A stretch of DNA of 28,588 nucleotides from IMG/VR virus record IMGVR_UViG_3300037484_001834, one strand, 5' to 3'. Under the pieces are notes generated by a model, which saw only the letters and a program-made list of their open reading frames with translations, was not told the origin of the DNA and searched no databases. Of this stretch, positions 3,836 through 26,953 are shown piece by piece (the first letter of the stretch is position 1; every line of letters starts with the position of its first letter). Position numbers and translations under genes: made by a program. The DNA is from a virus.

Positions 3836-4065
3836 CAGATTTTCCCGCAGTCAAGCGCAGTCCATTTACCTTCCACTTCGTGATAGATAGCAATGCTGTC
3901 ACCCTTTAACGTGGCAGCCTGACATGCTCTTAGAGCCTCATGTGGATCCGTACCCATCCACCATGTTACTGGCCATGCAAAGAGTGAGGGACAACTGTCG
4001 CTCTTGATAAGATAATGACCTTCTTGTGGGTCAGGTTTCTTGCTAAGCCATTCAATGCGCTTCAT
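3835..4065 (-). CDS. Family-C paralogue, short form (MKRIEWLSKKPDPQEGHYLIK...)
   Basis: Internal ATG at 4065 of the longer ORF 3835..4332. It forms an ATGA overlap with the methyltransferase stop. Paralogue of 3398..3835. Confidence 0.5.
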   Translation of the reverse strand: MKRIEWLSKKPDPQEGHYLIKSDSCPSLFAWPVTWWMGTDPHEALRACQAATLKGDSIAIYHEVEGKWTALDCGKI

Positions 4066-4646
4066 CACATTTTCCTTTCGTATCCAATCGACGTCATACC
4101 AAAGGCTGCGGCGGCTTTGACGAGCGCGCCGCTGCCGGCGAACGGGTCCAAAAACAGCCCGCCGGGAACGATCCAGGGCTTTACGGCCCATGACGCTACG
4201 GACGCAGGAAGCTCCGCACGTCGGCCGTTCCGGACCGGGGCCGCGGTGACGTGATCGAGCATCTCCGATGCCTCTTTCACATTCGCTTTGCCCTTTCGGA
4301 ACGCTATCGCCAAGACAGATGCGAATTTCCAACCAGGCGTTGTCACTTTTGAGCGGGACTGTGGTTTACACCAGGTGCCAATTCGGACGGGCTCCACAAC
4401 ACCACGTACGCTCTCTACCATGTAGCTCATGGACCGGTAGGAGGAAGCGCACATAACGATCATCCAACGCCCTCTCTTGAGTTTTTGGGCCGCTTCTCGC
4501 AGCACGACGGCGACAGTGGCCGAAATCGCATGCTCGTCTCCGGAGCCGCCGAAGGCATAGGGCGGATCGGTCACGATGAGATCGAGCTTGCGTTTTTCTC
4601 GTTGGATGAGGTCGAGGCAGTCGCCTTTGATTATTTTGAAGCTCAT
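4065..4646 (-). CDS. beta-class DNA methyltransferase, N6-adenine or N4-cytosine (PF01555-like); orphan, with no REase partner visible
   Basis: N-terminal IIKGDCLDLI...DLIVTDPPY (motif IV, DPPY) and C-terminal FLDPFAGSGA (motif I, FxGxG) are in the order typical of beta-class amino-methyltransferases. Start refined to the ATG at 4646 (MSFKIIKGD). 193 aa. Confidence 0.8.
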   Translation of the reverse strand: MSFKIIKGDCLDLIQREKRKLDLIVTDPPYAFGGSGDEHAISATVAVVLREAAQKLKRGRWMIVMCASSYRSMSYMVESVRGVVEPVRIGTWCKPQSRSKVTTPGWKFASVLAIAFRKGKANVKEASEMLDHVTAAPVRNGRRAELPASVASWAVKPWIVPGGLFLDPFAGSGALVKAAAAFGMTSIGYERKM

Positions 4647-4666
4647 AGCCAAAAAAGATCTTTGTT

Positions 4667-5104
4667 TTAAAGAAGGACCCATCCTTGGTTGGCGCATGCT
4701 CCACAGTTTCCAATAAGGAAGGAGAGCTCTATCTCGGCTGGACGCCGAAGCTTGCCTTCTTGCAAATGATCCCACCCCTCGTTTCTGGAGTCGTTGTTCC
4801 TGTCGGGGTAGATTACGTCTCCCTCGGGATTCACTTCGTATTCGACGTCGTAGGCCCAAATACCGCTATTCGAGCGATAACCCTCGATCACGGCGCCAGG
4901 GCCGAGTATGGCGCGAAAGAAGTCCCTTGGTGTTGGGAAGAATTCATAGGCCGCGCTCAGTCCCGCCTCGGCGCAATCGATATCATGAGAAAAGGCAAGT
5001 GGAATCGCATTCTTGCTCGTTATGCCTACGATACGGCCAGCTCGCAGACCGCTATGGCAAGCGAACAGCATCGTCTCCTTGATCGTTTTTGTTTCAAAGC
5101 TCAT
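4667..5104 (-). CDS. hypothetical protein
   Basis: ORF. Start refined to the ATG at 5104 (MSFETKT), 7 nt downstream of the preceding stop. Confidence 0.45.
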   Translation of the reverse strand: MSFETKTIKETMLFACHSGLRAGRIVGITSKNAIPLAFSHDIDCAEAGLSAAYEFFPTPRDFFRAILGPGAVIEGYRSNSGIWAYDVEYEVNPEGDVIYPDRNNDSRNEGWDHLQEGKLRRPAEIELSFLIGNCGACANQGWVLL

Positions 5105-5111
5105 GTAACAC

Positions 5112-5780
5112 CTATTTCTTTTCAATTTCGACGAAGTCGACGCGTTCGGAGTAATAGCCGTCAGACGTTCCCAGCCATCGAAACGTGACCGTTCCATGTG
5201 ATGTGCCAATAATGTAAAAAGTCCACGTAAATGACTCCCATGGATCTATCTCTTTTCCGTCAGGTAGTGGCTCATCAGATGAGGCTTCCTCTGCTCGCAC
5301 TACCTGAGAGCCAATCAAGTCGCCAACGTCTCCGCAAACGTCTTCCAGCAACACCGTTTCGCTGTCATCTTGTTCATGATACATGCGAAATCTACGGCCA
5401 TCAGTAAGCATGAAGTCGACAGAGTCGCTACCCTTCGTCGCTCCTTTGATGTGAGAAATCGTCTGTCCGATCAAGTCCTGGATTGTTCTCGCGGTCTCTT
5501 TCGGTTCTTCTTTTAACGTAGCACGCCTGGGCCTATCGGGAGCCGCCAAGATACGCGCTCCAAGTTGCTCCGCCCTGGAGATGGCAGAAGGTCCTACCGC
5601 ACACGTTGCGCCTAAGAGGGAATCGTGAATTCTCTCCATACTGGCGCCGCTCACTGGTCCCATAGCTCCAGGCCCTTCGAGATTCGCCAAAAAGTTGCTT
5701 TCCGGCCCAGGATCTATGGTGCCCGTCTCCGGATAGCAGCGCTTGCAACTCCTATTTGCTAGATCGTGGCGGCAGCTCAT
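5112..5780 (-). CDS. hypothetical protein with an N-terminal Cys cluster (CRHDLANRSCKRC)
   Basis: ORF of 222 aa with ATG at 5780. Confidence 0.5.
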   Translation of the reverse strand: MSCRHDLANRSCKRCYPETGTIDPGPESNFLANLEGPGAMGPVSGASMERIHDSLLGATCAVGPSAISRAEQLGARILAAPDRPRRATLKEEPKETARTIQDLIGQTISHIKGATKGSDSVDFMLTDGRRFRMYHEQDDSETVLLEDVCGDVGDLIGSQVVRAEEASSDEPLPDGKEIDPWESFTWTFYIIGTSHGTVTFRWLGTSDGYYSERVDFVEIEKK

Positions 5781-5798
5781 GTTCGATTTTCTTTCAGT

Positions 5799-24983: not shown

Positions 24984-25123
24984 TTGTGTCCTTTCGATTC
25001 TTTCATTTTTTGGGGGCAATGAGAGAGGATAGATCAGTTGATATCTCCCTCTCGCTAAAATCACAAATGGCGGAGCGAGCATGCTCCGTCATATTTAAAC
25101 CATGTCTATCCGACTGATGCCTA

Positions 25124-25405
25124 TTACATGTTGATGGGCCCGACAGAAATTTTGAAATGCAGTCTTCGCAGCGCCGATGCCAATGCAATAGCAAATTCAG
25201 CCCCGACGTCGCTCTGGTTAAAACCTCCAGACAAAGTAAGTGTGCGACCTCTAGGCAGCAAAACGTCGACACCACCTGGCCATCCTAGCCATCCCCACTC
25301 CTGAGGTTGAATATTCTCATCGATGGCTCCTATCTTAAGTAATGCTGTTCTTACCGAGCGAACAGGAATCTTTCGGTTAGCTTTCAAATCAATAGACCAG
25401 CTCAT
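25124..25405 (-). CDS. hypothetical 93-aa protein
   Basis: ATG at 25405 preceded by GGAGAA SD. Confidence 0.45.
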   Translation of the reverse strand: MSWSIDLKANRKIPVRSVRTALLKIGAIDENIQPQEWGWLGWPGGVDVLLPRGRTLTLSGGFNQSDVGAEFAIALASALRRLHFKISVGPINM

Positions 25406-25424
25406 TGATATTCTCCTTCAGGCC

Positions 25425-25649
25425 TTAAGTTTCAGAAGAATTTTCCGCAGCTTCAAATTTGTCTGTTTCGAGCAAAAGCGCTCCAAAGACCTGCGCGTAG
25501 ACCGGATTCGCCATTCGTTTGACGAGCTCGGGCCAATCTCCTCGTGGTCTTTGAGCGCATTCTTTTATCGCGCGAGCCACGGCTCTCGCTCTATAAGCTT
25601 CATCTTCGATGTCGTCTTGTGGATTTTTTTCGTTCATTTCTAGCCTCAT
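25425..25649 (-). CDS. hypothetical 74-aa acidic protein
   Basis: ORF directly downstream of rtcB, 17-nt spacer. Weak SD. Confidence 0.4.
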   Translation of the reverse strand: MRLEMNEKNPQDDIEDEAYRARAVARAIKECAQRPRGDWPELVKRMANPVYAQVFGALLLETDKFEAAENSSET

Positions 25650-25666
25650 TTATCCGGAAATCGTTT

Positions 25667-26953
25667 TCATCCCTTTATGCAAACAACCTGCCGGAGCGTA
25701 TGTACGATCTCGACCAGGTCGCGCTGGGCATGCATGACGGCGTCGATGGATTTATATGCCATCGGAGTTTCATCAATTACGTCCAAATCCTTTCGGCATT
25801 CGACGTTGGCCGTGGCGGCCTCGTGCTCGGCGAGTGTGAAGCGTTTCCGTGCTTTCGTGCGGGACATGGCCCGGCCGGCGCCATGACTCGCGCTATGCAA
25901 GCTTTGTTCGTTACCAAGGCCACGCACGATATACGAGCTTGTTCCCATGCTTCCGGGGATGATTCCCATATCGCTCTTGCGCGCACGTATTGCTCCCTTG
26001 CGCGTAACGAACACGTTTTCACCAAAATGGTGCTCCCACGCGACGTAATTGTGGTGGCAATTTATCGACAGACTCCCTCTCCAACTCTCCGATTCAAACG
26101 CTCTTCCCAGCCCCGTGTAACATAGCGCTTGCAGGACAGCAGACATCATCAGCTCGCGATTAATTCGCGCGTATTCCTGCGCCCACTCGGCGCCGAATAG
26201 ATAATCCTCAAAAATCTCTGTTCCTTGCGGCAGGTAGGCCAAATCAGGGTCTGGCAAATCTATGAACCACTTCCGCATGTGACTTTTGGCCAAATCGATG
26301 AAGTCACATCCGATGCGGTTCCCGACGCCGCGCGAGCCGCTATGGAGCATGATCCACACACGATCCTGCTCATCCAGGCACACTTCGATGAAATGATTCC
26401 CGCTACCCAAGGTTCCGAGGTGGTGGATATGAGGTCCTCGATCGAGGCGTGGGTACTTTTTTGCCAGACGCTCGTACCCGGCTTTCAATCCTTCCCATGC
26501 ACGGACTTGCGCCGCAGGGGGATCCTTCCAGGCTCCGGAGTCGTTTGGCCCGCCGTTATTCGTACGGCCGTGAGGCACCGCAGCCTCGATAGCGGAGCGG
26601 ACTTTTTGTAGATTATCGGGCAGCATGGAAGCGGTCATGTTGACTTGTTGCGCCATGACACCGCAACCGATATCAACACCGACGGCGGCGGGAATGATTG
26701 CGCCTTTGGTCGCGATTACACTTCCGATGGTCGCCCCCTTACCGGCATGAACGTCAGGCATCACGGCCACGTGGCGAAAGACGAACGGAAGTCGCGCTAC
26801 GTTCTCCAACTGAGCACGCGCCTCGGGCTCGAATGGAACGCCCACGGTCCAGCACTTGAGCGGCACGCCGCCTTCGACCGGAAAAATCAAGGCGTCTCCG
26901 GTCTTGTCCAGTGCGTAGTAAGCGACATCATCTGCTCTCGTCGTATCGGTCAT
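25667..26953 (-). CDS. rtcB: RtcB family RNA 3'-phosphate/2',3'-cyclic phosphate ligase
   Basis: Full-length RtcB signatures: metal-binding His/Cys positions, HSGSRG, HNY and SASHGAGR motifs. 428 aa. Downstream of promoter P9. Confidence 0.9.
   Translation of the reverse strand: MTDTTRADDVAYYALDKTGDALIFPVEGGVPLKCWTVGVPFEPEARAQLENVARLPFVFRHVAVMPDVHAGKGATIGSVIATKGAIIPAAVGVDIGCGVMAQQVNMTASMLPDNLQKVRSAIEAAVPHGRTNNGGPNDSGAWKDPPAAQVRAWEGLKAGYERLAKKYPRLDRGPHIHHLGTLGSGNHFIEVCLDEQDRVWIMLHSGSRGVGNRIGCDFIDLAKSHMRKWFIDLPDPDLAYLPQGTEIFEDYLFGAEWAQEYARINRELMMSAVLQALCYTGLGRAFESESWRGSLSINCHHNYVAWEHHFGENVFVTRKGAIRARKSDMGIIPGSMGTSSYIVRGLGNEQSLHSASHGAGRAMSRTKARKRFTLAEHEAATANVECRKDLDVIDETPMAYKSIDAVMHAQRDLVEIVHTLRQVVCIKG

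Follow-up and report, generated by a model that had tools for sequence, protein, structure and literature searches.

The window analysed here is the whole 28,588-bp metagenome contig of the IMG/VR virus record IMGVR_UViG_3300037484_001834, on which 38 genes were counted at a coding density of approximately 93%, all on the minus strand except for one at 18479-18718(+). The contig encodes two methyltransferases (MTases) with no restriction endonuclease beside them, the RNA ligase RtcB together with a major vault protein (MVP) homologue, and a DHH phosphodiesterase related to NrN, and these genes are discussed below as putative counter-defence functions of a large phage. The genes on which this reading depends are the following:

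4065..4646, minus strand: compact, solitary N6/N4 DNA methyltransferase of 193 amino acids (aa), recognised by Pfam, PHROG and PADLOC matches and by motif order
16258..18102, minus strand: solitary 614-aa fusion of DUF3560 with a class-I (NPPF) MTase, joined by an ATGA overlap to an upstream 97-aa gene, recognised by Pfam and motifs
20411..21487, minus strand: NrN-family DHH phosphodiesterase with the motifs D12-x-E14, E71, D-H100-H101 and D222-H223 intact, recognised by motif alignment
22371..25082, minus strand: MVP homologue of 903 aa (Pfam MVP_shoulder, E 1e-19, and Vault_3)
25667..26953, minus strand: RtcB RNA ligase (Pfam RtcB, E 3e-126; phrog_1075 "tRNA splicing ligase", E 2e-139)

The fusion protein combines DUF3560 (E 1.4e-34) with a class-I MTase domain of the MTS type, which carries the motifs EPSAGTGN and NPPF; both motifs are invariant or nearly so across 51 aligned homologues. 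The compact MTase matches the Pfam family N6_N4_Mtase (E 1.7e-11), phrog_67 "DNA methyltransferase" (E 1.7e-18) and the PADLOC MTase_II/oMTase models, scores far below the cut-off of the NCBIfam PRK13699-type model, and shows the motif order of the beta class, DPPY being close to the N-terminus and FAGSG close to the C-terminus. In both enzymes, the SAM-binding motif and the catalytic (D/N)PP(Y/F) motif are intact. No nuclease or restriction endonuclease domain was detected in the 37 minus-strand open reading frames (ORFs) with Pfam and PHROGs, nor in the subsets of them scanned with PADLOC and NCBIfam, although small ORFans could hide novel nucleases and the result extends only to the ends of the contig. 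An earlier note on this DNA had proposed a beta-class amino-MTase, a DUF3560-MTase fusion and RtcB, with no restriction endonuclease; all three genes are real, RtcB being full-length, and both MTases stand alone on the contig.

The compact MTase aligns from end to end with a 217-aa MTase of the plasmid pBCJ2315, with which it shares only weak similarity (26% identity, pairwise E 7e-7); the gene table of PLSDB, which is incomplete, lists no other MTase for pBCJ2315. M.EcoGIX and M.BceJIII are single-strand-specific N6-methyladenine (m6A) methyltransferases with a degenerate SAY motif, and M.BceJIII is encoded by pBCJ2315 (PMC7736820). The 217-aa ORF may thus be M.BceJIII, a correspondence given here as a lead. 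The window enzyme shares with M.EcoGIX and M.BceJIII that it is an amino-MTase of small size, encoded without a partner by a mobile element; it differs in its distance from the pBCJ2315 protein. Its neighbour at 4667-5104 has no match among the PDB sequences.

Orphan MTases are a recognised anti-restriction device of plasmid leading regions and phages (PMC11541004), and they protect both kinds of element (PMC11541004; PMC7736820). As in those orphan systems, the window MTases lack a restriction endonuclease partner and are encoded on a mobile element within a co-directional gene array. Family knowledge from these sources therefore suggests that the two enzymes would methylate the element's own DNA, their presumed substrate, so that it is left uncut by host restriction enzymes. 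That mobile elements escape restriction and RNA-cutting defences by means of solitary MTases and RNA ligases is well established, and the window adds a further example of such anti-defence genes in a poorly sampled, Myxococcota-like host group.

The element to which these genes belong has to be judged from their relatives and neighbours. Full-length homologues of the DUF3560-MTase (approximately 40% identity, 98% coverage) are found on at least 5000 PLSDB plasmids, 4220 of which, among the matches listed, are conjugative. Two plasmids were inspected for gene context: on an IncF plasmid, the gene is surrounded by antirestriction, ParB-like, psiB, hok, DUF932 and traM genes, and on pALIDE201 its neighbours are ssb, DUF932, kleA and radC. 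DUF3560-MTases are thus typical of conjugative-plasmid leading regions, as had been claimed, with the leading-region setting read from these two plasmids. The window could accordingly derive from a conjugative plasmid or an integrative and conjugative element and represent its leading region, which is the first part to arrive in a recipient; the MTases would then modify the DNA as it enters in single-stranded form or just after its replication, as on plasmids of the IncF/IncI/IncP types. Besides the architecture of the fusion, which is shared over 98% of its length with the enzymes of IncF and other MOBF/MPF_F plasmids, the resemblance of the compact MTase to the small MTase of pBCJ2315, a plasmid with an ssDNA-specific leading-region MTase (PMC7736820), and the co-directional genes speak for this origin. 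However, Pfam searches of the 28.6 kb reveal none of the leading-region markers ssb, psiB, ardA/klcA, ParB-like, DUF932, SLT, relaxase or type IV secretion system, and on the contig the DUF3560-MTase gene is flanked neither by oriT genes nor by plasmid-type companions. The window protein also differs from the plasmid enzymes in its phage-like context and in its closest relatives, which are Myxococcota-associated. In addition, lineage-specific genes of the window (the NrN-like family, the MVP clade and several PHROG families) occur in phage contexts, and the promoters described below, rather than being Frpo-like hairpins, belong to the ordinary sigma-70 type that works on double-stranded DNA, and they carry operators. 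A leading region is consequently regarded as quite improbable. The uniform orientation of the genes and their ATGA coupling, which the earlier note had brought forward in favour of a leading-region or phage-early programme, are indeed present, with seven ATGA overlaps and two TGATG junctions; being generic to phages and operons, they do not discriminate.

Closer relatives of the DUF3560-MTase lie in other settings. One that is 65% identical is encoded on a phage-like 79-kb contig together with Amidase_2 (endolysin-type), RNase_T, AAA_24, SSB and MT-A70 genes. Another, 72% identical, on contig L002 (1-2570, 10001-11881), is separated by approximately 7 kb from a gene for a family-B DNA polymerase of the protein-primed kind (DNA_pol_B_2), where an element borders on host-like kinase and sigma-54 activator genes. 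On L001, L002 and L003, three conserved ORFans and then a metallophosphoesterase gene come after the MTase gene, an arrangement unlike that of the window. Across the contig, matches to PHROG families are made by 5112-5780, 6630-7133, 19120-19932 and RtcB. No relative at the nucleotide level was found by megablast of 25 kb against 50,697 phage and 72,556 plasmid records, and an exact 45-mer from the window is unmatched in collections of genomes, metagenomes and viral contigs. The DUF3560-MTase product is on record at 100% identity with 28,588 bp as the longest contig, and the protein database, which covers JGI metagenomes, shows none of this lineage that is longer.

The settings of the DUF3560-MTase relatives also bear on the view that the window is a chromosomal island of a myxococcotal genome, for example a defence/anti-defence island or a prophage in decay, in which the MTases would be leftovers or regulators rather than active counter-defence genes. 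Close relatives of the fusion occur beside insertion sequence (IS) elements and GmrSD, SIR2 and PDDEXK genes on a 1.4-Mb contig (L001), beside DUF499 and helicase genes (L013), or, as on L002, next to host-like genes; MVP is common in Myxococcota chromosomes, and the contig itself contains a defence-type ATPase gene and a RelB-type gene. Against an island stand the absence of any integrase, transposase, tRNA or host housekeeping gene on the contig, the intact state of the genes with no pseudogene pattern, and a GC content of 52.9%, about 6-9 points under the 59-63% of most Myxococcota-associated relatives' loci. The repeated promoter/operator system and the dense unidirectional packing further indicate a single co-regulated programme, and a chromosomal island is considered unlikely.

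The reading favoured over both a conjugative leading region and a chromosomal island is that the contig represents an accessory or early region of a large phage, and it is held with moderate confidence. Such a region is likelier because plasmid markers are absent and because the nearest relatives are found on phage-like contigs; of the two contexts that had been proposed earlier, leading region or phage-early, the phage context is thus the more likely. The assignment to a phage rests on relatives, as the contig itself is without hallmark genes. The contig would accordingly be an accessory/early-type stretch from a large phage, or from a mobile element resembling one, whose host is most likely Myxococcota-like, and its genes would presumably be expressed early in infection.

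Several observations weigh against the window being a counter-defence region of a phage. Genes for capsid, portal, terminase and tail, as well as replication genes, are absent from the contig itself. The full DUF3560-MTase fusion, abundant on plasmids, is absent from 50,697 GenBank phage records, where matches are confined to the MTase domain, and the close relatives on L001 and L013 reside in chromosomal islands. A role in conflict is plausible for only approximately 6 of the 38 genes. Moreover, neither palindrome nor restriction-site avoidance is evident in the 28.6 kb, which therefore gives no independent sign of restriction pressure, and the catalytic domain of the fusion weakly matches RsmC/PrmC/KsgA/Erm-type models (source annotations, NCBIfam).

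The last two of these points, together with the DUF3560 part, a long helical scaffold in which no DNA-binding fold is recognised, also speak for the view that one or both MTases are not anti-restriction enzymes and instead methylate RNA or protein, or methylate DNA for the regulation, replication or packaging of the element. The fusion may act on RNA or protein, since its catalytic domain bears this weak similarity to RsmC/PrmC/KsgA-type enzymes. The top PHROG and PADLOC matches are nevertheless DNA methyltransferases, NPPF and DPPY are motifs of amino-MTases acting on exocyclic nitrogen, and the plasmid homologues are placed among anti-restriction genes; a function other than anti-restriction is thus given a low probability, and self-methylation of the element's DNA is retained as the preferred role.

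RtcB is complete, with residues 48-428 matching positions 1-426 of the Pfam profile, as judged by the span of the domain. The MVP homologue is encoded in the same direction, two small genes downstream of RtcB. A related 10-kb contig, L004, carries RtcB and MVP genes that are 87% identical and in the same order (102-5682), and behind the pair come paralogue families that the window shares (tblastn); in L004, a Mg-chelatase-type AAA+ gene lies between the two genes, whereas two small ORFs occupy this place in the window. According to the part of PMC13404743 that cites Burroughs & Aravind 2016, bacterial RtcB shares operons with MVP homologues, and it is these homologues that are implicated in RNA repair. 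Judging from gene order, RtcB is therefore not an isolated gene of the window but part of the known RtcB-MVP module. As in the bacterial operons, a single transcription unit holds both RtcB and the MVP homologue, and this arrangement is kept in L004. In contrast to these operons, the setting is phage-like, Pfam identifies no TROVE(Ro) or vWA partner on the contig, and no Y-RNA, vault RNA or tRNA-like RNA was detected near RtcB and MVP with Rfam (E<=1) or ARAGORN, by which a novel RNA could be missed; the whole contig likewise contains no tRNA or tmRNA gene according to ARAGORN and no Rfam match at E<=1.

The MVP homologue belongs to a large family of 5270 homologues, many of them from Myxococcota. 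Homologues at 61-65% identity lie in unidirectional, ORFan-dense arrays on contigs of 70-194 kb, and others at 38% identity are encoded on the "uncultured phage" records LR756500/1/3 of 462-735 kb; a search of IMG/VR confirmed no MVP-related loci. The window product itself lacks an exact database record because its start is called differently. Phage and bacterial MVP homologues have already been described (bioRxiv 10.1101/872010; 10.1101/2023.11.10.566534).

In the proposed mechanism, RtcB, expressed together with the MVP homologue, would reseal tRNA or rRNA after cleavage by toxins or anticodon nucleases of the host; for an enzyme of this family it is plausible that RNA damaged by nucleases is repaired, and these RNAs are its presumed substrates. 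RtcB directly joins ends with a 2',3'-cyclic phosphate or 3'-phosphate to 5'-OH ends, and the phage T4 enzymes Pnk and Rnl1 repair tRNA cleaved by PrrC. Like the T4 system, the window would thus provide a mobile-element RNA ligase that undoes host RNA cleavage, although its ligase is of another family and has no kinase/phosphatase partner. A phage-like RtcB-MVP pair also constitutes a compact, expressible system with which to ask about the function of vault proteins, unresolved in eukaryotes.

The phosphodiesterase gene at 20411-21487 is one of four window genes that share an N-terminal motif (706-2250, 19998-20414, 20411-21487 and 21523-21903), and it is the only one to have kept the catalytic residues; the other three are truncated or have lost them:

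706..2250, minus strand: degenerate 514-aa NrN-like paralogue that has lost DxE and DHH and carries CGEH repeats and a C-terminal extension (alignment; 15-nt repeat found by TRF at 1225-1289)
19998..20414, minus strand: truncated, motif-less NrN-like paralogue consisting of the N-domain only (alignment; tblastn to L004 paralogues)
21523..21903, minus strand: truncated, motif-less NrN-like paralogue consisting of the N-domain only (alignment; tblastn to L004 paralogues)

The family has no Pfam model and numbers 108 homologues among 5.8 billion protein clusters. When its profile is compared with all PDB sequences, the best match is NrN (E 0.023); the segments LGxxDxEM, VE and IDHH align with NrN, including the NrN residues E21 and D85/H86/H87, and the DHH fold of the window protein is closest to that of NrN. 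Members are present on 45 IMG/VR contigs and on a 43-kb contig (L009) with portal, terminase, Prim-Pol and integrase genes. Among GTDB species representatives, the family appears only in contigs of metagenome-assembled genomes (MAGs) from several phyla, with the top matches in Myxococcales MAGs, and tblastn against GenBank phages yields no match; the family is seen solely on metagenomic viral contigs and in MAGs. Clustering of the neighbourhoods of 88 NrN-like loci reveals no conserved neighbour family, only antisense shadow ORFs and pentapeptide-repeat proteins. The latter lie near the NrN-like gene in 8 of the 88 loci, including 7879-8493 of L008 and 7316-7903 of L071; the pentapeptide-repeat class includes DNA mimics.

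NrN is a specialised DHH phosphodiesterase of CorA-type III-B CRISPR systems that specifically degrades the messenger SAM-AMP (PMC10600005), and an anti-CRISPR function has been proposed for a SAM-AMP lyase of phage origin (PMC12255297); no description of phage NrN homologues was found in the literature searched. The window protein differs from NrN in its length, which is greater by approximately 100 residues and includes an additional domain at the C-terminus, in the absence of adjoining CorA or cas genes, neither of which Pfam finds on the contig, in the presence of its family on viral contigs, and in its three catalytically degenerate paralogues. By its similarity to NrN, the enzyme would hydrolyse a nucleotide-derived immune signal and thereby degrade a messenger of the host, an activity that would incidentally strengthen the counter-defence reading of the window. 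In its most specific form, this proposal makes the enzyme a phage anti-CRISPR or anti-signalling protein directed against SAM-AMP or a related conjugate, the three dead paralogues sponges or decoys, and the whole, together with the RtcB-vault module, a new multi-layer counter-defence set of large Myxococcota phages; this full version is doubtful, with a small but appreciable chance of being right. The only characterised NrN degrades a type III CRISPR messenger, and the NrN-like family resides largely on viral contigs. Were the window enzyme to break down an immune messenger, it would represent a new viral class of anti-signalling enzymes. The NrN-like family is the best lead from the window, and with the RtcB-MVP pair in its phage context it makes up the parts worth following.

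A further conflict-related gene appears to act in the opposite direction:

8229..9458, minus strand: defence-type ABC/OLD-like ATPase (AAA_21/AAA_15), joined by an ATGA overlap to the upstream 129-aa gene 9455-9844 (Pfam)

The best PADLOC match of this ATPase is HEC-01A (E 8e-27), followed by PDC-M07A, AriA and PtuA, and its NCBIfam MAD3/PtuA scores are far below the cut-off. No Toprim, HNH, DUF4435 or nuclease domain was detected that would mark a cognate partner such as those of the defined ABC-ATPase systems PARIS, Septu, Gabija, OLD and HEC-01; the 129-aa protein encoded upstream has only a weak match to PDC-M32A and none among the PDB sequences. Its domain matches make this a defence-type rather than a counter-defence gene, and the ABC-type ATPase with its small partner would probably exclude competing elements. 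The conflict-related genes of the window would thus act at different layers, dispersed among many ORFans.

The earlier note had described the span 4065-26953 as an anti-restriction island that also contained a possible Lar-like protein. A counter-defence reading is reasonable for the two MTases and RtcB, but the term island is overstated for the whole 23 kb because most of its approximately 33 genes have no evident role in conflict and because a defence-type ATPase is present. The Lar-like protein is not supported: the small Cys-rich proteins at 6387-6629, 18715-19101 and 3398-3835 match no Pfam family, Lar_restr_allev included, at E<=10, and the protein at 18715-19101 has no PDB sequence match.

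Transcription of the window appears to be organised by a repeated promoter element. The sequence TTGAY-N7-TTATCTTACATAAGATAA occurs in seven copies, each on the minus strand and preceding a gene, whereas shuffled sequence would be expected to contain 0.08. Its 18-bp palindrome, TTATCTTACATAAGATAA, is present in eight copies, seven of which sit at a fixed distance of 7 nt after TTGAY and overlap the spacer and the -10 element. A generic sigma-70 scan independently calls four of the promoter copies, in which the spacer measures 16 nt and the -10 element reads TAAAAT or TAAGAT. The copies are:

8157..8186, minus strand: promoter/operator copy TTGAC-N7-GTATCTTATATAAGATAA (repeat search; sigma-70 scan)
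12164..12193, minus strand: promoter/operator copy (repeat search)
12596..12615, minus strand: perfect palindrome TTATCTTACATAAGATAA, an operator copy with different -35 spacing (inverted repeat)
15694..15723, minus strand: promoter/operator copy (repeat search; sigma-70 scan)
16202..16231, minus strand: promoter/operator copy (repeat search; sigma-70 scan)
18415..18444, minus strand: promoter/operator copy for the unit made up of the 97-aa gene and the DUF3560-MTase (repeat search; sigma-70 scan; kept in L004)
22213..22242, minus strand: promoter/operator copy ahead of the NrN-like cluster (repeat search; kept in L004)
27002..27031, minus strand: promoter/operator copy ahead of RtcB, preceded by TTCTC-N7-GAGAA at 27045-27061 (repeat search)

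An operator that overlaps the spacer and the -10 element is in the classic position for a repressor. Transcription of the window would accordingly be unidirectional and start from at least eight sigma-70-type promoter copies, each with the palindrome over spacer and -10, and a dimeric repressor presumably binds the 18-bp palindrome. Of the repressor-controlled promoters proposed in the earlier note, the repeated promoter/palindrome element is real; a repressor was not identified on the contig, and its control of the promoters is presumed from the position of the palindrome. A candidate for the DNA-binding regulator, and conceivably for the palindrome-binding protein, lies near the end of the contig:

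28141..28401, minus strand: RelB/DinJ-type ribbon-helix-helix protein (Pfam RelB, E 4.5e-13; NCBIfam RelB_DinJ above cut-off)

The RelB/DinJ-type gene is ATGA-coupled to a gene for a 357-aa TPR protein (27071-28144, minus strand), and there is no RelE-type toxin gene with it.

A second repeated element, TTCTC-N7-GAGAA, occurs in seven copies against 0.11 expected and is usually located 25-35 nt upstream of the -35 element, mostly directly after a stop codon. Copies in the window and in L004 are:

8212-8228, 15733-15749, 19978-19994, 21503-21519, 22256-22272 and 27045-27061 of the window: TTCTC-N7-GAGAA
5781 and 9961 of L004: TTCTC-N7-GAGAA

Both this motif and the palindromic promoter lie at equivalent positions in L004. 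The placement of TTCTC-N7-GAGAA ahead of the -35 element suggests a protein-binding site, and the motif could also form a weak hairpin. As an intrinsic terminator it was rejected, since the stem is too weak and only one copy was flagged.

The only plus-strand gene, 18479-18718, encodes a 78-aa protein without a family match and points away from the promoter that serves the DUF3560-MTase operon; a gene 83% identical occupies the same position in L004. A cluster of three minus-strand genes (12651-15639) encodes a Roadblock/LC7 (MglB-like) protein, a membrane-anchored OmpA-like protein and a 617-aa protein with transmembrane and coiled-coil segments, the last with a weak C-terminal Roadblock match, and constitutes unusual cargo for a mobile element. 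Additional genes of the span encode an FGE-sulfatase-domain protein, a lipoprotein, membrane proteins, a DUF7448 protein and several paralogue families. One such family, with the motif W(I/V)xxHGSxRLKK, comprises 9867-11639, 11682-12140 and 15763-16179 and is also duplicated in L004; a second, with FDHILSxEEATKL...YDEVL, comprises 71-691 and 7130-7738; and a third, with MKxIEWLxKKPxPQxGHYLI, comprises 3398-3835 and 3835-4065.

Perfect 15-nt tandem repeats occur within two genes. The repeat at 11503-11628 (8.4 copies) encodes eight PAEST units at the N-terminus of the 9867-11639 product, and that at 1225-1289 (4.3 copies) encodes the CGEHx repeats of the degenerate NrN-like paralogue 706-2250; the two arrays are alike at the DNA level. 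At the end of the contig (28460-28588), upstream of the RelB-like gene, short GC-rich, hairpin-like units are found, one of which, CCTTGCGGGGTGTG, recurs approximately 95 nt apart, and this run may be the reason why the assembly stopped there.

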